Positions 3,203-57,861 of a stretch of DNA of 64,000 nucleotides are shown here, one piece after another (position 1 is the first letter of the stretch; every line of letters begins with the position of its first letter). Where the stretch lies: assembly GCA_000991245.1 (NCBI GenBank), contig LBRD01000003.1:6734-70733 (forward strand), given 5' to 3'. Position numbers and translations under genes: made by a program. Origin of the DNA: Parcubacteria group bacterium GW2011_GWC1_36_108 (GTDB taxonomy: Bacteria; Patescibacteriota; Minisyncoccia; Moranbacterales; GWC2-37-73). Under the pieces are notes generated by a model. That model worked only from the letters and a program-made list of their open reading frames with translations. It did no database searches and was not told the DNA's origin.

Positions 3203-3206
3203 AAAC

Positions 3207-3291
3207 AAAAGTTTTAAAGTTTTTAAAGTTATAAAGTTTTTAAAGTAAATTTCACACCTTTACCTTATGAACATTACAAACTTTACGAACA
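3207..3291. repeat. palindromic 9-bp-period array (GTTTTTAAA/GTTATAAAG words, then the inverted CTTATGAAC...TTTACGAAC)
   Basis: Direct reading. Confidence 0.65.
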
Positions 3292-3863: not shown

Positions 3864-4058
3864 TGTTTTTATTTTTAATAAATTACATCTGTTATTATAC
3901 AGCTTTGAAGCGAGAGCCACAAGGGAGTTGTGCACACCCGTCCGCATCGTCACGCGAGCAAGCTCGTTTGCCAGGGTCACATAAAATTTTTTAAATATTG
4001 TCTATAAATCAAATTTGCGCTATACTGGATAGGTAAATATTGAATAAATCAAACAATT

Positions 4059-5000
4059 ATGGAAGGTCAAAAACCGTTTATCTCAGTTGTCGTGCCTTTG
4101 TATAATGAAGAAGGAAATGTGAGGGAATTACACAAGCGTATTTTAGATGCGTGTGAAAAACTGGGAAAACCATTTGAAATTATCTTTATTGATGACGGTT
4201 CTAAGGATGAGACAATCAAAAATGCCCAAGGCTTGACTCCTCTTACTTTAATCAAATTTCGCAAAAATTTTGGACAAACCGCAGCTTTTGATGCTGGTAT
4301 TAAGCAAGCGCAGGGTGAGATTGTGATCACAATGGATGGAGATTTGCAAAATGATCCTGCTGACATCGGGCTGCTGTTATCCAAAATGGAAGAAGGATTC
4401 GATGTTGTTTCGGGTTGGCGTTTCAAGCGAAAAGATTCGTTGAGCAAAAAAATATTTTCACGTACTGCCAATTTGCTGCGAAAAATTCTGATTCAGGACA
4501 CGATTCACGATAGCGGTTGTTCTCTGAAAGCGTATAAACGAAATTGTTTCGAAGACGTTGATCTTTTTGGAGAGATGCATCGTTTTATGCCGGCATTGCT
4601 GGAACTTCAAGGGTATAAAATTGGTGAAGTGAAAGTGAATCATTATCCTCGCGTGCATGGCGTGACCAAATATAATTGGAAACGTGGGATGAAGGGTTTT
4701 GTGGATATGATTTCGATTTGGTTTTGGCGCAAATATTCCAACAGGCCGCTGCATCTTTTTGGTGGAACCGGCATCGTTGTTTCATTTTTGGGGACATTGG
4801 TTCTTGTTTGGATGGTGGTTGAGAAAATTTTCTTTGGCGCATCACTTTCAGAAAAAATATGGCCTTTGGTGGGAATCTTTTTGGTTCTCGTTGGCATTCA
4901 ACTTTTCGTGTTCGGACTTTTGGCCGATATTATGCTTAAGAATTATTACAAAGGACAAAAGAGGATGAATTACAATATCAAAGAAATTAGTCAAAGCTAA
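4059..5000 (+). CDS. GT2 polyprenol-phosphate glycosyltransferase (GtrB/ArnC-like)
   Basis: VVVPLYNEE...IFIDDGSKD...MDGDLQNDP, plus two C-terminal TM helices. Confidence 0.85.
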   Translation: MEGQKPFISVVVPLYNEEGNVRELHKRILDACEKLGKPFEIIFIDDGSKDETIKNAQGLTPLTLIKFRKNFGQTAAFDAGIKQAQGEIVITMDGDLQNDPADIGLLLSKMEEGFDVVSGWRFKRKDSLSKKIFSRTANLLRKILIQDTIHDSGCSLKAYKRNCFEDVDLFGEMHRFMPALLELQGYKIGEVKVNHYPRVHGVTKYNWKRGMKGFVDMISIWFWRKYSNRPLHLFGGTGIVVSFLGTLVLVWMVVEKIFFGASLSEKIWPLVGIFLVLVGIQLFVFGLLADIMLKNYYKGQKRMNYNIKEISQS

Positions 5001-5008
5001 TTTCTTAT

Positions 5009-5093
5009 TGTCATTCCCGTGAAAACGGGAATCCAGGACTGAGCCTAACTTGCGCGCAAACCTGGATCCCGGATCTGCTGTCCGGGACGACAC
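5009..5093. mobile_element. MITE-like hairpin element, family A copy 1
   Basis: GTCATTCCCGTGAAAACGGGAATCCAGG...CCTGGATCCCGGATCTGCTGTCCGGGACGAC. Three nested hairpins, with GTCAT / (G)ACGAC termini. Confidence 0.7.
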
Positions 5094-5106
5094 GAGTACA
5101 TGTCGA

Positions 5107-5175
5107 TTTCTTAACGCTCATCACTCGTTTTTTGCCTACGTACTTCATATGGTGCAAAGGGATGCGGGATACAAG
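5107..5175 (+). repeat. mosaic repeat: module C plus tail
   Basis: 5107-5156 matches 6677-6726 (50 nt, 2 mismatches). The tail ggtgcaaagggatgcgggataca matches 9446-9476. Confidence 0.75.
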
Positions 5176-5203
5176 ATATATAATTAGTATAATATTTTAA
5201 ATT

Positions 5204-6529
5204 ATGAAAATTGGAGTTATTGGAACTGGATATGTGGGTAGTGTGACAGGAGCTTGTTTTGCGGAAATGGGGAACACTGTTATTTGCGTGGACAATGATC
5301 AAAAAAAAGTTGATCAGTTTTCTTCTGGCAAAGTTCCACTTCACGAAAAAGGTTTGGATGAATTGGTTTCTCGAAATTTGAAAAACAAAACTTTGACATT
5401 CACGACTGATCTTGAAGATACTTTGAAAAAATCTGACATTATTTTTATCGCTGTTGGGACACCTCCAAATGAAGATGGAAGCGCCGACCTTTCTCACGTG
5501 CTTGGCGTGGCAACCTCAATCGGGCAAATGATGGATCATAAACTTATCATCGTGGACAAATCAACTGTGCCGGTTGGAACTGCTGAAAAAGTTTCCAAAA
5601 ATATCGCTAAAGAGCTTAAGGATAGAGGGGTCGAGATTCCTTTTTCCGTGGTTAGTAATCCCGAGTTTTTGGCGCAAGGAACTGCTGTCAAAGATTTCTT
5701 GGAACCGAGTCGTATTGTTATTGGCGCAGATGATCCAAAAGTAATTGAAACGATGCGCGAACTGTATGAACCTTTTATGCGTCGTGAAGGACGTTTCTTT
5801 TCAATGGATGCAAAAACAGCCGAGATTGTGAAATATGCTTCAAACTGTTTCTTGGCTGCCAAAATTTCTGTGAACAATGAGTTGGCAAACATTTGCTCAA
5901 AGGCAGGAGCTGATTTTGACAATGTGCGCAAAGCGATGGGCGCCGATCCGCGCATTGGAGAACCTTTTATGTATGCGGGTCCCGGTTTTGGTGGATCTTG
6001 TTTTCCAAAAGATGTGAAAGCACTTGTCAAAACAGCCAAGGATTTTGGATATGACGCTGAAATGTTGAAACAAACACTGGGAACAAACGACAAGCAAAAA
6101 TTTGTGTTGTCTCAAATGGTTATTGATGAGCTTGGGGAGGATTTGAAAAACAAAGTTTTTGGTGTTTGGGGATTGGCTTTCAAAGCGGGAACTGATGATA
6201 TGCGCGAATCTTCAGCGCTTACTATTATCAGTGAACTCATCAAAAGAGGAGCCAAAATTCAAGCGCACGATCCAGAAGCAATGAAAATGGCGCAGCGCGA
6301 GGAATATTTTGGCGAAAATTCAAGCATTACATATTTTGAAAATAAATATGATGCACTTAAGGAAGCGGATGCGATGCTTGTTATTACTGAATGGAAAGAA
6401 TTTCGCACACCAGATTTTGATGAGATTAAAAAACTTTTGAAAACTCCTATGATTTTTGATGGCAGGCTTTTGTATGAACCCAAGAAAATGAAAGAAATGG
6501 GATTTGATTATAAATCGATAGGAAGATAA
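5204..6529 (+). CDS. ugd: UDP-glucose 6-dehydrogenase family protein
   Basis: MKIGVIGTGYVGSVTGACFAEMG Rossmann N-terminus, GGSCFPKD catalytic-Cys motif, 441 aa. Confidence 0.85.
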   Translation: MKIGVIGTGYVGSVTGACFAEMGNTVICVDNDQKKVDQFSSGKVPLHEKGLDELVSRNLKNKTLTFTTDLEDTLKKSDIIFIAVGTPPNEDGSADLSHVLGVATSIGQMMDHKLIIVDKSTVPVGTAEKVSKNIAKELKDRGVEIPFSVVSNPEFLAQGTAVKDFLEPSRIVIGADDPKVIETMRELYEPFMRREGRFFSMDAKTAEIVKYASNCFLAAKISVNNELANICSKAGADFDNVRKAMGADPRIGEPFMYAGPGFGGSCFPKDVKALVKTAKDFGYDAEMLKQTLGTNDKQKFVLSQMVIDELGEDLKNKVFGVWGLAFKAGTDDMRESSALTIISELIKRGAKIQAHDPEAMKMAQREEYFGENSSITYFENKYDALKEADAMLVITEWKEFRTPDFDEIKKLLKTPMIFDGRLLYEPKKMKEMGFDYKSIGR

Positions 6530-7793: not shown

Positions 7794-8144
7794 ATGGCGA
7801 AATTTGAGACATTTGAAGATATTGTTGCTTGGCAAAAATCAAGAATTCTTGTAACTGATATTTATCAAGTATTCAGAAGCAGCAAGGACTATTCTTTTCG
7901 AGATCAAATACAGAGAGCTGCAGTTTCAATTATGAATAATATCGCCGAAGGTTATGAAAGAAAAGGAAATAAGGAATTTGCAAAGTTTTTATATATAGCA
8001 AAAGGTTCTTGCGCAGAGGTTCGTTCAATGCTTTATCTCGCTCTAGATTTAAGATATATTAATAGGGAAGAATTTAATAACTTTTCTGAACAATCACTTG
8101 TAATTTCTAAGATGTTATCAAGTCTCATAAAAACATTGTGTTAG
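7794..8144 (+). CDS. four-helix-bundle protein (23S rRNA intervening-sequence protein family)
   Basis: 116 aa. Motifs QIQRAAVSIMNNIAEGYER and FLYIAKGSCAEVRSMLYLA. Confidence 0.8.
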   Translation: MAKFETFEDIVAWQKSRILVTDIYQVFRSSKDYSFRDQIQRAAVSIMNNIAEGYERKGNKEFAKFLYIAKGSCAEVRSMLYLALDLRYINREEFNNFSEQSLVISKMLSSLIKTLC

Positions 8145-8146
8145 GG

Positions 8147-8166
8147 ACTTTAAAAACTTTAAGAAC
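8147..8166 (-). repeat. short inverted 9-mer array (ACTTTAAAA ACTTTAAGA)
   Basis: Reverse complement of the words in 7658-7788. It closes an inverted pair around gene 7794..8144. Confidence 0.55.
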
Positions 8167-8172
8167 TATACT

Positions 8173-24249: not shown

Positions 24250-24259
24250 AAATAGTGTT

Positions 24260-24346
24260 TGTCATTCCGGACTTGATCCGGAATCCCGAGTTTTAGCTTA
24301 TAAGCCGTTCTGCTGCGAGAGATCCTGAAACAAGTTCAGGATGACA
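24260..24346. mobile_element. MITE-like hairpin element, family A copy 2
   Basis: GTCATTCCGGACTTGATCCGGAATCC...GATCCTGAAACAAGTTCAGGATGAC. Confidence 0.7.
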
Positions 24347-26782: not shown

Positions 26783-26842
26783 TGTTGAAATAATTTTAAG
26801 TTTTAAGTTTTAAATTTAAAATTGAACCATCGTCCTCTGTGC

Positions 26843-41444: not shown

Positions 41445-42263
41445 TTAAAATGGGCTTTTGATGTTTCTAAGCATTGGATTAGTTACTTTCGTGTATATCT
41501 GTGTTGTTCTTATATTAGCATGTCCAAGCAATTCTTGTACATATCGCACATCAACCCCATTTTCAAGCAGATGAGTGGCAAAAGAATGTCTAAGTGAGTG
41601 AAAAGTGGCTTCTTTTTGAACCTCAGCTTTTTGCAGAGCATTTTCAAAAACTTTTTGTGCGCTACGCTCATCTAATTTTCCTCCGCGATTACTGGCAAAA
41701 ACATAATCATTTAAATCTCTAAGCGCAATCATATTAAGCAATTGTGGTTTCAATTTTTCTGAAATTACACTTATTCTATCCTTGTTTCCTTTAGCTCCTT
41801 TTATATGAATTGTTAATTCGTCTAAATTGATGTCTTTAATCTTTAAATTTATTGCTTCACTGACGCGAAAACCTGCGCCATAGGAAAGGGAAATGAGCAG
41901 CTTATGTTTCGGATTGCTTATGGAATCAATCATTCTTCCAATCTCATCCCTAGAAAGTACTACGGGCAATTTGCTGGCAGTTTTGGCAAATTTGATATCA
42001 ATTTCAATATTATTTTTAAAAACTTCTCTATAAAAGTATTTAATAGCTTGAAGATGCACATTCATCGTCTGTGAGGATTGTCCACGAGCTTGTTTTTCTA
42101 ATAAATATTTCTTAATTACTTCAATTTCCGGTTCGCGCTTAATAATTTTAATGTATTTGAAATATTCATTCAGACAAGACAAATAACTCTCAATTGTCCT
42201 TGGACTGTAATTTCGAAGTTTCAGTTCGTTTTTGATTTTTTCCAGCAACTCTTGGAGATTCAT
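41445..42263 (-). CDS. tyrosine site-specific recombinase (Xer/IntI-like, 272 aa)
   Basis: YSPRTIESY N-terminal SAM-like domain; KLPVVLSRDE; catalytic R (GFRVSE), K (KGNKDR), HSLRHSFATHL and LGHANIRTTQIYTKV (Tyr). There is no long insertion between the K and HxxR regions. Confidence 0.85.
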   Translation of the reverse strand: MNLQELLEKIKNELKLRNYSPRTIESYLSCLNEYFKYIKIIKREPEIEVIKKYLLEKQARGQSSQTMNVHLQAIKYFYREVFKNNIEIDIKFAKTASKLPVVLSRDEIGRMIDSISNPKHKLLISLSYGAGFRVSEAINLKIKDINLDELTIHIKGAKGNKDRISVISEKLKPQLLNMIALRDLNDYVFASNRGGKLDERSAQKVFENALQKAEVQKEATFHSLRHSFATHLLENGVDVRYVQELLGHANIRTTQIYTKVTNPMLRNIKSPF

Positions 42264-42321
42264 AAAAAATATGCTATATTTTATTCATAAATCAGTGATG
42301 GTTGTATTATACTAAAAGTTC

Positions 42322-42384
42322 GCATAACCTGCAACTTTCAACATACTATCAAACACTAAGTTCGTATATAAAGGAGTTATGTGC
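42322..42384 (+). other. attI-like region: GCATAAC (42322-42328) ... GTTATGTGC (42376-42384)
   Basis: Inverted AAC/GTT boxes 113 bp or less from the recombinase start. 42376 is where similarity to the right end of cassette 1 begins. Confidence 0.4.
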
Positions 42385-42489
42385 AATAGCCAGAAATACC
42401 CCATTATCTTTTAGAATTTTTTTTGGCGAAATGCAGGGTCGAATAACTCAAGGTAAAATTAATATTAATTAAATTAAACAACAAACATT

Positions 42490-43110
42490 ATGAAAGAAAT
42501 GTATCAACCATCGCAAGCTGAAATAAAAAAAGCAGAAGATGTCATGACTGAAGAACAAAAACTTGAGAGCATGACGAGAGAAAATGCTGTTCACGCAGGG
42601 GAAGCATCTTTCAGTGATTATGATGAAACAAAAAAAATTAACCCAGAAAAAACCCATAAAATTGAGATAGAACTGCAAGCCACAATTTATAAGGAATTCA
42701 ATGATCGAGTTAAAGAATTAGTTAAATCATATACAGAAAGCCTATCTGCCCTAAAAAGAGAAGCTAACTATGAAGACGACGAGCAGCTTGATGAGATAGA
42801 TAAAAAAATAAATGAATTAACAAAAAAATTATTTGAAGACTTTGGAGAACAGTATATGCGCTTAAGCAAGGTTGTAATAGACACCACAATAACAATATCA
42901 GATTTTGTAATTCATAAAAAAGACATGTTATTACAGCAAGAAGAAGATCAACAAAAAAGACAGGAGTTAGAAGCCAGCATACTTAAAAGCGAAAATGCAA
43001 AAATACAAAGAGCGGAAGCTGTCATAGCAAATCTTGAAAAATATATAAACGATGTTAAAAACAATTTTGAAAAAGGTGCTGAAGAATTAATGAAAGAAAT
43101 AAAGAAATAA
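42490..43110 (+). CDS. cassette 1 ORF: acidic coiled-coil protein, unknown function
   Basis: 206 aa, E/K-rich. Bracketed by inverted repeats 42376-42430 and 43117-43175. Confidence 0.6.
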   Translation: MKEMYQPSQAEIKKAEDVMTEEQKLESMTRENAVHAGEASFSDYDETKKINPEKTHKIEIELQATIYKEFNDRVKELVKSYTESLSALKREANYEDDEQLDEIDKKINELTKKLFEDFGEQYMRLSKVVIDTTITISDFVIHKKDMLLQQEEDQQKRQELEASILKSENAKIQRAEAVIANLEKYINDVKNNFEKGAEELMKEIKK

Positions 43111-43166
43111 GAAAAATTCGCCAAAAAAAATTAAACACAAATAAGGAATGGGTATTTCTAGCTACA

Positions 43167-43364
43167 GCACATAACAGCCCATATCTGGCTACAGGAAATT
43201 GACGCTAGTAAAAACAATATTGAGTGTCAATTTCCCTCCGCCCAAATTTTCATCCCTTGGTTTGATGAAGGTTTAGGCGGAGTGCATTAAAAAAAATATC
43301 AGCCTGTAATTAAAGTTTATCCTGCTAAACGGGATGAAAACTTCAGATATGGGCGACGTTGTGC
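43167..43364 (+). other. attC-like folded site 1
   Basis: GCACATAAC, then CCCATATCTG pairing with CAGATATGGG; hairpin GGAAATTGAC/GTCAATTTCC; CCCAAATT; GTTGTGC. Confidence 0.55.
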
Positions 43365-43527
43365 GAAATAAATTTTTTATCTATACTAATATTAGCGTTT
43401 AGTGATGCTAGTAAGGACAGAAAATTTGATTTTTTAATTATTTTAAGAGGGGTAATATGTGTTTTTCTGCTCTTTGGGGAGCAGAAAAAATTAATTCATT
43501 TGTAATTTATTTTTAAGCAATAAAACT

Positions 43528-44430
43528 ATGAGCATGGAACAACCAAAATTTAATCCACACAATCCTGAATATAAAAAAGTTGAGGATTTACCAAAAGAAG
43601 AACAAGTAAATTATTCTGACGTTGAAGGTGGTTTTGTTCAAAAAGAAGCAGCTGAGTTTTATAAAATAGCGCAGGACATTGAAAGAATTACAGAGCGCGA
43701 AAGTGGCTCAATGAGTGCTGACAAATTCATGATGCTTCTCGCGCAAGATGAGGACACGAAAAGAGAATGGGATGCGCTTACTGGAAAACAAAAGCTCAAT
43801 GTTCTCATGGGAAATCCTAAAAAAGAGGACATGGATTTATCGACTTGGAACACGAATAGGTCTGCGATAGAGAAAACTCTTGAAGAACATCCTGAACTTA
43901 GAGATAACAAGAAGCTTATGCTTAAATTGATTATTTCAGGTACCAGTCAGGCACCAGGGCTTGCTTCTGAAAAAGTGCGTAATGATAAGGGTTACGCTTT
44001 GGAGGCGGTAAAACGAAACGGAATGGCTCTCGGGTATCTTCCAGAGGAGATGCAAGACGATGAAGATGTTGTTATGGCAGCAGTTACTACGCGTGGATTA
44101 GCTCTTAGAGAGGCTTCTCCACGATTGCAGAACAATAGAGAAATTGTTGCTGCAGCAATCACCTCAGAGGATGGAGACTTTGGAGACATAATATATGCCT
44201 CCTCAGATGAGGTAATTGAAAGTTTATTGGATGAAAATAACCCAGCCAATAAGGATATTCTTTTAAAAGCGATGAATAACAAGCATGTCAATGATAATTA
44301 TAAAAGAATTGCCAGCTATAATCCAAATCATCCAGACTACCAGGGTGGGCAGTACGATGAAGTTTTCAAGAGATATGAGCATCTGCACATGCGTGAGAAA
44401 ATAGAGAAAATATTGGGAGAGAATTTATAA
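43528..44430 (+). CDS. cassette 2 ORF: DUF4116-type repeat protein
   Basis: Repeats of the form AVKRNGMALGYLPEEMQDDEDVVMAAVTTRGLALREASPRLQNNREIVAAAI. No SD. Confidence 0.6.
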   Translation: MSMEQPKFNPHNPEYKKVEDLPKEEQVNYSDVEGGFVQKEAAEFYKIAQDIERITERESGSMSADKFMMLLAQDEDTKREWDALTGKQKLNVLMGNPKKEDMDLSTWNTNRSAIEKTLEEHPELRDNKKLMLKLIISGTSQAPGLASEKVRNDKGYALEAVKRNGMALGYLPEEMQDDEDVVMAAVTTRGLALREASPRLQNNREIVAAAITSEDGDFGDIIYASSDEVIESLLDENNPANKDILLKAMNNKHVNDNYKRIASYNPNHPDYQGGQYDEVFKRYEHLHMREKIEKILGENL

Positions 44431-44455
44431 ATATCCAAAAAAATACCAATAAGGA

Positions 44456-44504
44456 GTCTTGAAAAAAGGAATTCACCCCTTACCCCTCTTCCTTTTTTCA
44501 AGAC
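44456..44504 (+). other. 15-bp perfect hairpin with conserved C-rich loop ATTCACCCCTTACCCCTCT
   Basis: GTCTTGAAAAAAGGA / TCCTTTTTTCAAGAC. The loop is complementary to AAGAGGGGTAA at 43445-43455 and 44782-44792. Confidence 0.7.
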
Positions 44505-44573
44505 AAAAATCAAATTTTCTTAGACGCAACACAACGTTTAGTTTAATAAAAAACGAGATAAAAAATTTACATC

Positions 44574-44700
44574 GCACAACAACTCATATCTGGCTCAAGA
44601 AATTGACACTTTAATGTTTCAGATGAAAGTCAATTTCTTTCGACCCAAATTTTTGTGCAATTACATTGCGCAAAAACTTCAGATATGAGTAACGTTAGCT
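44574..44700 (+). other. attC-like folded site 2
   Basis: GCACAAC, then ACTCATATCTG pairing with CAGATATGAGT; GAAATTGAC/GTCAATTTC; CCCAAATT; GTTAGCT. Confidence 0.55.
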
Positions 44701-44853
44701 GAAATATTTTTTTGTCTTTAGTAGTGATTTTTAGATTTGTGATTTAAATAGGGACAGAAAATTTGATTTTTAATTTATTTAAAGAGGGGTAATGGGATAT
44801 TTTTTTGCTCCTGGAATCGCAAAAAAAAGATTTATTTTATTTTTAAAAACAGT

Positions 44854-46431
44854 ATGGAAAAATATTCATTAGAAAATGCCCAGAGCGAAGCTACTGTTAT
44901 TAGAAATGATGCACAAGAGGCAAAACAAAAAAGAGTGCTAGAGGGCGAAAAAAGCGGTGAGCCAAATAGAGATGATTATGACAAAGCCGACAAAGCGATT
45001 GATAGCATTGGCATAAGTAATAGAAAAGAATTTGAGCAAAAACAAGCTGAGATACAAAATAAATATTCAACCGTATTGGAGGGGTCAAAAAATAGCGGTA
45101 ATCAAGAATCTGTAAAATTGCTTCAAGATAACATGAGTCAAGAACTATCTTTTATTGATAGCCAATCAAAGAAATTTAATAGTTTGGAATTTAAAAAGGG
45201 AGAGAAGGCGACGCGTGAATATATTAAAAAAAATAATCTTGATAAATTAGTAGAAGAATTCGGAATTGAGCCAATGAAAGAGGGTTGTCGTCTTTCATTG
45301 GTCATTCCAGCATGCAACGAGGGGCGTGATATTCAAAAAACATTACAATCCTTAGCAGAGCAGAAAGATGAAAATGGTGAAGGTATTAATCCTGATGAAT
45401 TTGAGGTTTTGATTACAGTCAATCAAAAAGAGCAATCAAGCGAGGAAATAAAAAAATCAAATCAACAAACACTTGAAGCAATAGAAGAATTCAAAAGGAA
45501 TAATCCATCTTTAAATATCCATGCTATTTTAAAAGAATTTACGGGCGAGCAAGGTGGTGTTGGTTGGGCAAGAAAATTAGGAAGTGATTTGGTACTTGCA
45601 AGAAGTTTTAGCAGAAATCAAGAATCTGAACGAGAACCGATGTATATTGCAGGAACTGACGCTGATACAATTGTTGGTGAGCAATATGTATCAGAAATTA
45701 TCAAGGCAGCAAATAAGTATGGCGATGCCGCCTATGGCGGTGGTGTTATTTTTGATGAGAATTGGGAAAAAGCATTGGGAAAAAATGCGTCCGACAAGCT
45801 CAGGGTATTCATGGAAGATATGCGTGGATTTCTATTAAAGGCATTAAATGGCGGTTTGCAAGGTGCAAACTTTGCCATACGCGAAGATATCTATGCTCGC
45901 ATGGAAGGAAGCTCAACAAAAGTACATAGCGAAGATGCGGAAAATGATGAACGATTACGAAGTTTGAAAAAAAATGTAACATTTTTAAATTCTGACCATA
46001 TCACTAGCTCTCGTAGGATGATTGGAGAATTCGAAAACTATATTGCTGGAATGCGAGGGCAAAAAATAGACTGGGAAACACGAAACAAGACTTATGGAAA
46101 GTCTGTCCCTACGGGAGAAAAAATTGACTTTACTGAATCCGAGCTTGATGAGGTAATTGCTTACCACAAATTACATAGATCAGATCTAATTATAGACAGT
46201 ATAACTTCGGAAAACGTAAATAATCCAGAGATGGTGCAATTGATTGGAGAAAAATATCATTCTGATTTTAAAGATTTAAAAACTGAAGAATTTAAGACAC
46301 TATTGAATGATAAAAATTTTAGAAAAAAATTACAAATTGAGATAGCATACAATATGTCTAAATTATTTGCATCGAAAATTTCATATACAGAAAAAGATAA
46401 ATTCATCATCGGAATTCCAGAAAAACAATAA
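44854..46431 (+). CDS. cassette 3 ORF: protein with central GT-A (GT2-like) glycosyltransferase fold
   Basis: LSLVIPACNEGRDIQKTLQSL and GTDADTIV (DxD-like). Coiled-coil N-terminus. No SD. Confidence 0.55.
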   Translation: MEKYSLENAQSEATVIRNDAQEAKQKRVLEGEKSGEPNRDDYDKADKAIDSIGISNRKEFEQKQAEIQNKYSTVLEGSKNSGNQESVKLLQDNMSQELSFIDSQSKKFNSLEFKKGEKATREYIKKNNLDKLVEEFGIEPMKEGCRLSLVIPACNEGRDIQKTLQSLAEQKDENGEGINPDEFEVLITVNQKEQSSEEIKKSNQQTLEAIEEFKRNNPSLNIHAILKEFTGEQGGVGWARKLGSDLVLARSFSRNQESEREPMYIAGTDADTIVGEQYVSEIIKAANKYGDAAYGGGVIFDENWEKALGKNASDKLRVFMEDMRGFLLKALNGGLQGANFAIREDIYARMEGSSTKVHSEDAENDERLRSLKKNVTFLNSDHITSSRRMIGEFENYIAGMRGQKIDWETRNKTYGKSVPTGEKIDFTESELDEVIAYHKLHRSDLIIDSITSENVNNPEMVQLIGEKYHSDFKDLKTEEFKTLLNDKNFRKKLQIEIAYNMSKLFASKISYTEKDKFIIGIPEKQ

Positions 46432-46434
46432 GGA

Positions 46435-46484
46435 GTTTTGTTTCAAAAAAATTCACCCCTACCCCTCTTTTTTTGAAACAAAAC
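46435..46484 (+). other. 17-bp perfect hairpin with conserved loop TTCACCCCTACCCCTC
   Basis: GTTTTGTTTCAAAAAAA / TTTTTTTGAAACAAAAC. The stem differs from 44456-44504 but the loop is conserved. Confidence 0.7.
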
Positions 46485-46553
46485 GAAAAATCAAATTTTC
46501 TTAGTAATAAAACAAAGTTTGTATTAATAAAATAGAAGACAAAAAAATACATC

Positions 46554-46743
46554 AGCTAACACGGCATATCTGGTTCAGAAATTTTTCACTTTTATACTTT
46601 TTAACGCCAAGGTTTGAAAAATTTCCTCTCCCAAATTGCGCTGTGATATGGCAAAGTTTAGTGATATAATTAAGGCAGGCAGAAAGTTGAAGTTTTAGCC
46701 AATGAATATGGGCGCAACTTCAGATGATGCCGATACGTTGTCG
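46554..46743 (+). other. attC-like folded site 3
   Basis: AGCTAAC, then GGCATATCTG pairing with CAGATGATGCC (one bulge); GAAATTTTTCA/TGAAAAATTTC; CCCAAATT; GTTGTCG. Confidence 0.5.
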
Positions 46744-46803: not shown

Positions 46804-46830
46804 GAAAAAACCGCACAGTATTCTGTGCGG
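46804..46830 (-). terminator. rho-independent terminator for the minus-strand small ORF
   Basis: Minus strand reads CCGCACAG-aata-CTGTGCGG followed by TTTTTT. Confidence 0.7.
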
Positions 46831-46848
46831 TCGTAATTACATTTGTCA

Positions 46849-50654: not shown

Positions 50655-50736
50655 TGTCATTCCCGTGAAAACGGGAATCCAGAACCGAGTCTAGCTGAAG
50701 AGCTAAACTAGATTCCGGATCAAGTCCGGAATGACA
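50655..50736. mobile_element. MITE-like hairpin element, family A copy 5
   Basis: TGTCATTCCCGTGAAAACGGGAATCCAG...GATTCCGGATCAAGTCCGGAATGACA. Confidence 0.75.
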
Positions 50737-50743
50737 ATGAAAT

Positions 50744-56926: not shown

Positions 56927-56929
56927 AAT

Positions 56930-56962
56930 AGGTTTTAGGTATTAGGTTTTAGTTTTTAGGTT
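56930..56962 (+). repeat. AGGTTTTAGGT word array
   Basis: Direct reading. An inverted partner lies at 57819-57856. Confidence 0.6.
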
Positions 56963-57818: not shown

Positions 57819-57856
57819 TATCACCTAAAACCTAGCACCTAATCACCTAAAACCTA
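57819..57856 (-). repeat. inverted ACCTAAAAC word array
   Basis: Reverse complement of the words at 56930-56962. Confidence 0.6.
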
Positions 57857-57861
57857 TTCTT

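Follow-up and report, generated by a model that had tools for sequence, protein, structure and literature searches.

Mirrored flanks of integron-like cassettes in a Patescibacteria genome, read as the split halves of a long attC-centred palindrome

We analyzed a stretch of 64,000 nucleotides (nt) from Parcubacteria group bacterium GW2011_GWC1_36_108 (contig LBRD01000003.1, positions 6,734 to 70,733 of the forward strand), referred to here as the window. Between positions 41445 and 46740 the window holds an integron-like array, made up of a short IntI-like tyrosine recombinase, an attI site and three gene cassettes with attC sites (Table 1), and the subject of this work is the non-coding flanks of these cassettes, which mirror each other at the two ends of one cassette. 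The recombinase retains catalytic and SAM-like domains, matched Pfam Phage_integrase with E = 1.9e-41, and scored 224 bits against the NCBIfam XerA/integron integrase family. Against TIGR02249 it scored 212, below the cutoff of 265, and the match was split in two. The nearest solved structure was that of the Vibrio integron integrase VchIntIA (2a3v, E = 1e-45), with archaeal XerA next; 2a3v was also matched in two stretches, with query residues 183-196 spanning chain residues 185-241 and about 43 residues missing. By both the profile score and the 2a3v alignment, the IntI-specific additional domain (an insertion with the I2 helix) is not present in the recombinase. This insertion is the domain thought to define integron integrases, and by that usual definition the protein would not, on its sequence, count as a canonical integron integrase, though the sites and cassettes behave in an integron-like way. 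Homologues of the short recombinase, with 42-80% identity, adjoin arrays in 14 other loci.

The attI site lies next to the recombinase gene, and the first cassette is joined to it at G|TT, in the junction GGA|GTTATGTGC at 42376. The start of cassette 1 (GTTATGTGC...) mirrors that cassette's own 3' end, and the junction TTCGCATATAAAaGA|GTT was seen again in five related loci (L003, L011, L019, L021, and L024). The three attC sites are imperfect palindromes of 119-188 nt with AAC...GTT outer boxes, inner boxes CATATCTGG / CAGATATG, and unequal spacers of 4 vs 6 nt. A scan for the Pc promoter gave a weak sigma-70-like match (9/12) at 42284-42313, in a region where the number of such matches equals the shuffle expectation. 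After attC3 the array is closed by a convergent gene and a canonical terminator (46809-46832, minus strand). A tRNA scan of the window found no gene, and no homologues of the open reading frames (ORFs) of the cassettes, ORF1-3, were found among the fetched related loci. At least 24 contigs in public assemblies (L167 and 23 others like it) carry the same recombinase with the same three cassettes; no rearrangement was seen among these contigs, and the array looks stable across samples.

Table 1. Positions of the recombinase, the recombination sites, and the parts of the three cassettes in the window.
Feature	Position	Strand	Note or basis
IntI-like tyrosine recombinase, 272 aa, without IntI-specific insertion	41445..42263	-	Pfam, NCBIfam, structure match
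attI region, crossover G|TT at 42376-42378, two GTTCG(C/T)ATA repeats	42264..42378	+	junction and mirror to cassette 1 end
Cassette 1 (ORF 42490-43110)	42377..43358	+	~55-nt arms of another subfamily; no G-box or hairpin; z = 15.3
attC1 core, AAC...GTT, 188 nt	43173..43360	+	palindrome analysis
Cassette 2 5' arm, R' extension GTTGTGCGAAATAAATTTTTTATCT	43358..43382	+	92% complementary to 44556-44580
Module A, cassette 2 5' arm	43419..43434	+	motif scan
G-box AAGAGGGGTAA, cassette 2	43445..43455	+	motif scan
Cassette 2 5' leader hairpin (TTTTTCTGCTC / GAGCAGAAAAA)	43462..43489	+	upstream ORF 43457-43516 runs through hairpin
ORF2, 300 aa, DUF4116	43528..44430	+	domain match
Cassette 2 trailer: AATAAGGAG, then 16-bp hairpin	44448..44504	+	loop 44472-44488, C-box 44480-44490
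Module A', cassette 2 3' arm	44505..44520	+	motif scan
Cassette 2 3' arm, R'' extension ending in AAC	44556..44580	+	inverted-repeat match
attC2 core, 119 nt	44578..44696	+	palindrome analysis and folding
Cassette 3 5' arm/leader	44694..44853	+	R' extension 44694-44718, module A 44756-44771, G-box 44782-44792
Cassette 3 5' leader hairpin	44800-44827	+	upstream ORF 44792-44872
ORF3, 525 aa, GT2 glycosyltransferase	44854..46431	+	TAA of conserved AATAAGGAG serves as stop codon
Cassette 3 trailer/3' arm	46427..46560	+	AATAAGGAG 46427-46435; module A' 46486-46501; R'' extension 46536-46560
Cassette 3 17-bp hairpin	46435-46484	+	loop 46452-46467, C-box 46459-46469
attC3 core, 182 nt, last site of array	46558..46739	+	palindrome analysis

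The original prediction, made from the letters of the window, had described mirrored modules in the flanks of cassettes 2 and 3, and every motif position that it gave was correct. Module A (AGAAAATTTGATTTTT) and its mirror image occur exactly four times in the 64 kb, at 43419 and 44756 on the plus strand and at 44505 and 46486 on the minus strand. The G-box AAGAGGGGTAA lies at 43445 and 44782 (+) and, as the mirrored C-box, at 44480 (-), with a one-mismatch copy at 46459 (-); neither motif was found elsewhere in the window. The hairpins that hold the C-box in their loops are perfect, as had been described, with 16 bp in cassette 2 (44456-44471 / 44489-44504) and 17 bp in cassette 3 (46435-46451 / 46468-46484), and have different stems and a common loop. 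The 25-nt terminal repeats of cassettes 2 and 3 are 92% complementary. Alignment of each 5' flank to the reverse complement of the 3' flank gave z = 8.7 for cassette 2 and 13.9 for cassette 3 relative to dinucleotide shuffles, and z = 3.6 and 7.3 respectively once the first 26 nt were left out. The mirroring of the flanks is far beyond chance.

Some parts of that first description had to be amended. Terminal inverted repeats (TIRs) are present on cassettes 2 and 3 as claimed, and cassette 1 also carries one, of about 55 nt and of a different subfamily. The outermost ~25 nt had been taken as specific to each cassette; this holds for only 4-5 nt past GTT, and the rest is conserved within a subfamily across many genomes. 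The arm length of about 125 nt was an underestimate, as the mirror homology continues inward past the G-box to CTCC / AATAAGGAG, so that each arm measures about 150 nt. Lastly, the G-box is not the sole string resembling a Shine-Dalgarno (SD) sequence, since the 5' hairpin of cassette 2 contains GGGGAG and AAGGAG is found at both trailers.

The partner of each arm is found within the same cassette. The initial 25 nt of cassette 2 complement the 25 nt before its own AAC (44556-44580), not the sequence across attC1, and the starts of cassettes 1 and 3 likewise mirror their own 3' ends and not those of a neighbor. Such a pattern is the one expected of a crossover at G|TT inside a palindrome, the right half of which leaves with the next cassette; in the excised circle the halves would lie side by side. 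The repeats could also be taken for the ends of a transposon or a miniature inverted-repeat transposable element, as transposons typically have TIRs around an ORF, or for chance matches in AT-rich, low-complexity DNA. The repeats, however, begin exactly at the attC-type GTT/AAC and swap partners there, no transposase is present in the cassettes, and chance is ruled out by the shuffle controls; we give such readings next to no credence.

To place these flanks among related cassettes, we drew on three sets of searches. A scan of species-representative genomes for module A and the G-box found 34 loci, about 24 of which are in Patescibacteria metagenome-assembled genomes (MAGs) from Moraniibacteriota, Uhr-, Falkow- and Kuenenbacteria, and Parcubacteria groups, with the same layout and with both 5' and 3' forms. 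A metagenome scan with the loop motif yielded at least 120 loci, and about half of the matches listed lie between perfect inverted repeats. Searches with leader and trailer profiles yielded 181 sites in 72 loci, mostly Patescibacteria MAGs. Far from being absent from other cassettes, the modules are widespread. The loop-motif search also matched an unrelated repeat family (GATCGGGTGCTCTAGCCTAAGAGGGGGAGGGGGTGAATTAGGCACT...) from other metagenomes (L046, L048, L083, L085, L105, and others), which has no flanking stem or attC context.

The modules are inherited cassette by cassette. Among same-cassette leader/trailer pairs (n = 53), 34 were full/full, 5 were short/short, and none was full/short, while neighboring pairs across an attC were discordant in 8 of 26 cases, as against 0 of 53 within cassettes (Fisher p = 6e-5). 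Module class is concordant only within cassettes, as in a mobile unit whose two ends derive from one attC. Arms of the same cassette were more alike than neighboring or random arms in every segment: identity over the first 26 nt was 0.83 (neighbor 0.60, random 0.70), and over the segment with module A and the G-box it was 0.67 (neighbor 0.58, random 0.60). The 4-5 nt past GTT matched the end of their own cassette at 0.82 and that of the neighbor at 0.54 (p = 0.002). The arms fall into many subfamilies, which differ in module A (AAAATTTGATTTTT, TTCAAATTTCTTTTT, AAATAAGTTTTTT, or AATTTTATTTTT) and in the R-box extension; the two arms of a cassette were always of one subfamily. This concordance supports the view of the arms as an extension of the recombination palindrome. 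A sense-strand ORF is present in 50 of the 53 cassettes. The two arms also differ in a fixed way at positions 10-11 (AA vs TG), where the 5' arm has G(A/C)AATA and the 3' arm TACATC; once folded, this asymmetry gives A.A and C.A on the top strand and T.T and T.G on the bottom strand.

Two related loci deserve separate mention. L168 (positions 4001-5950) carries an orthologue of ORF3, 87% identical, with an identical trailer hairpin and module A'. Its outer arm and attC differ (GTGCG type), with the breakpoint directly after AAAAATCAAATTTTCTT, and its 5' leader is truncated beside an IS256-type transposase gene. L160 (IMG/VR UViG_3300001335_000566, 71 kb) is a contig classed as viral that has a trailer hairpin and leader of the family type; it may be a misclassified Patescibacteria contig, or its cassettes may be carried on a phage.

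We then generated predicted folds of the two junctions that an excised or an inserted cassette would present. As single-stranded DNA, the circle junction of cassette 2 folded into a single long hairpin (-88.4 kcal/mol, compared with -37.2 +/- 4.6 in shuffles; z = -11.1), in which the R-box extensions and modules A / A' are paired and the 3' hairpin forms a side branch. The array junction of cassettes 2 and 3 (trailer 2, attC2, and leader 3) reached only -64.3 kcal/mol (z = -6.7), and its centroid fold pairs box to box as an alternative to the local hairpin. One of the two explanations offered in the original prediction, that the arms extend the recombination palindrome, is thus supported by the within-cassette matching of the arms, by their concordant subfamilies, and by the circle-junction hairpin.

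Taken together, the mirrored flanks of these integron-like Patescibacteria cassettes are very probably what results when a long palindrome centred on attC is split in two. Each cassette would possess one imperfect palindrome, ~420-480 nt long in the excised circle and centred on its attC core, and a G|TT crossover within this palindrome would leave the right half at the 5' end of a cassette and the left half at the 3' end, where they appear as TIRs. The AT-rich arms could extend the single-stranded (or cruciform) attC fold that the recombinase uses and help it to nucleate, above all while the cassette is a circle about to be inserted by attC x attI recombination. At the inner tips of the arms, the 5' G-run box (AGAGGGGTAA..AAGGTG) and its mirror image in the loop of the 3' stop-codon hairpin may act as a loop-to-strand clamp or a protein site within the same DNA-level structure. 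We put it at an even chance that folding of attC is stabilized or nucleated by the arms, for the most part in the excised circle, with the G-box/loop pair as a sequence-specific distal element. As a joint account, the palindrome halves, the recombination role of the arms, and the distal module together seem to us slightly favored. If so, the loop would be complementary to the SD-like leader because the palindrome mirrors the G-box, and not as a translational switch.

Several observations weigh against this account. Outside the conserved blocks the arms are only ~50% complementary (spacer segment), and short-armed cassettes exist, which makes long arms dispensable. The fixed AA/TG position aside, wobble pairs in the arms did not differ significantly between bottom and top strand (143 vs 120, p = 0.17). 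In seven cassettes the main ATG follows the G-box by 3-11 nt, as would be the case for a true ribosome-binding site. Finally, a structural role alone explains neither the sequence invariance of the G-box and loop nor the start of the hairpin exactly at the stop codon.

The G-box and the 3' hairpin are the most constant parts of these flanks and bear on all remaining alternatives. The G-run box is AGAGGGGTAA, usually followed by AAGGTG, and is nearly constant across arm subfamilies. The loop of the 3' hairpin reads ATTCACCCCTnACCCCTCT on the sense strand and includes two ACCCCT repeats; it was found in full in 29 of 31 trailers from loci not selected on the loop, and also on attC families that are richer in GC and have very different arms (L072, L126, L140, L144, and L153). 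The stems vary around it, with 44 different stems among 69 unique hairpins. Across a set of 48 of these hairpins, each of the 10 stem pairs had changes on both sides (223 cells), giving a covariation score of 1.08 compared with 0.23 in shuffles, a value reached by 0 of 500 shuffles; hairpins had been kept only when at least 8 of 10 positions paired, a filter passed by 70 of 146 motif matches and by about 4 in 10,000 random flanks. The hairpin is preceded by the conserved AATAAGGAG, and in roughly half of the cassettes, cassette 3 (46429-46431) among them, the TAA of this string is the stop codon of the ORF, with a stop-to-loop distance of 18-22 nt. In these cassettes the ORF abuts the chassis, by which we mean the arms, G-box, and stop-codon hairpin, exactly, and in general the ORF fits tightly between the inner tips. 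Conservation is stronger in the loop than in the leader, and the invariant GTGAAT / ATTCAC bases of the loop have no leader partner.

The 5' hairpin is less uniform. RNAalifold found no consensus among 38 leaders, in which the hairpin takes at least two forms and aligns poorly. One form is a long T-run/A-run stem; the other is GTTTTC...GAAAAC around a CTCC-rich loop (TCCGCTCCGCTCC), seen in the 5' leaders of L021, L130, L072, L087, and others, and resembles sequence within attC cores. Scans of leaders and trailers for sigma-70 promoters and intrinsic terminators returned none, the T-run being absent after both 3' and 5' hairpins, and Rfam, searched at gathering and permissive thresholds, returned no family for the hairpin, leader, or attC. 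Module A had been considered as an IHF-like site on the basis of a partial match by eye; it differs between subfamilies, and the idea was dropped.

The second explanation in the original prediction places the pairing of loop and leader in RNA. The G-box and the GTG/ATG that follows it would form the ribosome-binding site of the cassette, which would be blocked by pairing with the C-rich loop and its two anti-SD-like ACCCCU repeats, either within the same transcript or from the trailer of the upstream cassette, and a ribosome terminating at the stop codon at the hairpin base would remodel this pairing. Such a gate is thermodynamically feasible, with a predicted leader-loop RNA duplex of -17 to -21 kcal/mol that covers the G-box and the next start codon, as against only -9 to -10 kcal/mol for the leader with a canonical 16S tail, that of the host being absent from the sequences analyzed. 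Nevertheless, shuffled loops still reach -11 to -14 kcal/mol from base composition, and no computation favors gating. A gate would agree with the box-to-box pairing in the centroid fold given above, with hairpins that have the stop codon at their base (about half of the cassettes), and with a precedent in the icaR 3' untranslated region (UTR), whose UCCCC motif pairs with its own SD (PMC3868564). A need to match rRNA would also explain why the sequence is invariant, and AGGAGGG and GAGGAGGGG occur among the G-box variants.

The seven cassettes whose main ATG closely follows the G-box lack the 5' hairpin and fit a gate as well, but their tight spacing is equally explained by packing of the ORF against the inner ends of the chassis, as on the 3' side. 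The host is nearly SD-free (1 of 41 window genes), and an SD-like tetramer precedes just 38 of 302 ORFs from 62 related loci. The invariant loop bases (ATTCA) that lack a leader partner, the stronger conservation of the loop than of the leader, and the lack of visible covariation between loop and leader variants would not be expected of a gate. Nor was there an excess of sense-strand G.U pairs, either in the arms, as given above, or in the hairpin stems (G.T 19 vs A.C 29, not significant), with the caveat that wobble tests for the strand of action cannot separate DNA from RNA function. The upstream ORFs behind the G-box also vary in start codon, frame, and length. On balance we find the gate unlikely. 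By analogy with icaR, each full-chassis cassette might have its own gate, and stored cassettes might stay silent until a ribosome or a structural change opened the hairpin; this too we consider doubtful, and equally so the associated idea that the gate sequences would also serve the recombination palindrome as its distal clamp.

A further possibility is that the flanks are portable expression signals mirrored by coincidence, the leader being a cassette-borne translation-initiation region, with an SD and a short upstream ORF that runs through the 5' hairpin and ends just before an SD-less main ATG, and the trailer a stabilizer or processing site of the mRNA. Both upstream ORFs of the original prediction (43457..43516 and 44792..44872) exist. 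In about 32 of 51 leaders, in the form with a 5' hairpin, a GTG, ATG, or TTG lies 6-7 nt past the G-run, and the ORF opened there has 11-21 codons, with an end that is usually 3-17 nt short of the main ATG; in L011, L032, L028, and L025 it is fused in frame with the main ORF. The main ORFs have no SD of their own, and coupling of this kind is established for ORF-11/ORF-18 in class 1 integrons (PMC8876359); the upstream ORFs and this precedent count in favor of a gate as well. Set against this, the start codon, frame, and length of the upstream ORF all vary, coding could not be demonstrated, and an open frame through T-run/A-run stems with stops in the AT-rich tail is expected by chance. One full-chassis cassette (L018) has its only long ORF antisense, the host uses few SDs, and the strict co-inheritance of leader and trailer and their mirror symmetry are left unexplained. 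We therefore hold portable signals to be improbable. A conserved peptide encoded by the upstream ORF was also considered and rejected, given that starts, frames, and lengths vary and that the similarity follows from the T-run/A-run stems.

The upstream regions of genes in the window are A/T-rich and depleted in G, with T at position -1 in 71% of 41 genes. Short periodic repeats such as AACTTTAAAAACTTTAA or ACCTAAAACCTAA lie ahead of several genes, for example at 3203-3237, 8138-8172, 26783-26817, 56927-56961, and 57827-57861. An identical 25-nt motif containing a hairpin, TTCCGGATCAAGTCCGGAATGACAA, lies immediately upstream of two unrelated genes (24259-24283, minus strand, and 50713-50737, plus strand); no such duplicates are expected by chance.

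The invariance of the G-box and loop could also stem from a protein. The two, with their tandem AGGGGT repeats, would then be symmetric binding sites for the recombinase or for an accessory or architectural factor, ~90-110 nt to each side of the crossover, like the accessory arms at other tyrosine-recombinase sites. This would agree with a sequence that is invariant across subfamilies while the adjoining arm varies, with its symmetric placement about attC, with the lack of strand bias, and with a recombinase that lacks the domain used by canonical IntI to read extrahelical bases. However, neither a candidate binding protein nor an extra DNA-binding domain was found, the recombinase having only 272 aa, and the attI and the short-armed cassettes are without such sites. 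As a separate explanation we rate this as very unlikely.

Returning to the long attC-centred palindrome, what the locus adds is a cassette family that spans several candidate phyla and has a common non-coding chassis of ~300 nt, consisting of arms, G-box, and stop-codon hairpin. These chassis cassettes are presumably handled by recombinases without the domain thought to define integron integrases. Should it be true that the arms aid folding, they would show that attC recognition is workable without the IntI-specific domain; should the box and loop instead regulate translation, the cassettes would bring their own silencing device. The tight fit of the ORF between the tips and the mosaic exchange of the outer arm in L168 offer material for the question of how cassettes are assembled. 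The literature searched contained no description of integrons or attC arms in Patescibacteria.

Among known systems, translational coupling by ORF-11/ORF-18 at attI1 of class 1 integrons (PMC8876359) is similar in that an SD and a short non-functional ORF end near the start of a gene without its own initiation region. Here, by contrast, the candidate SD and upstream ORF belong to each cassette and not to the platform, contain a hairpin, and are found in SD-poor genomes. In the icaR mRNA of Staphylococcus aureus, pairing between the 5' and 3' UTRs has been shown experimentally (PMC3868564), and there as here a C-rich anti-SD motif at the 3' end complements the SD region of its own transcript. 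The icaR motif lies in the UTR of a chromosomal gene, whereas the complementarity described here is a computed one and forms part of an inverted repeat in the DNA of a mobile cassette. Secondary structures of attC sites in polycistronic integron mRNA were described by Jacquier et al. (as cited in PMC8876359), and translation-dependent polarity has been reported in integron arrays (PMC11511950). In those systems palindromic RNA between cassettes can impede ribosomes and translation of one cassette affects the next, and the present cassettes would be similar in both respects. Those effects, unlike what is proposed here, stem from the attC core, without conserved leader and trailer modules or a loop motif.

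The closest likeness is to integron cassettes and their attC sites, as in class 1 integrons and the attC repeats of Vibrio (VCRs). The shared features are an imperfect palindrome with R''/R' boxes (AAC/GTT), inner L boxes, and unequal spacers; a crossover at G|TT, which puts the final bases of one site at the start of the next cassette; ORFs that are mostly single, have no promoter, and share an orientation; and an adjoining attI with a divergent tyrosine recombinase. Integron cassettes usually consist of an ORF and an attC of 57-141 bp, with nothing conserved beyond the R boxes. The cassettes described here have Patescibacteria as hosts and differ from known integrons in further ways. Their palindromy and sequence conservation reach ~100-150 nt past the R boxes on either side, a mismatch of 2 nt is fixed at 10-11 nt outside GTT, the boundaries of the ORF carry an invariant G-box/hairpin module, and the recombinase lacks the IntI-specific insertion.

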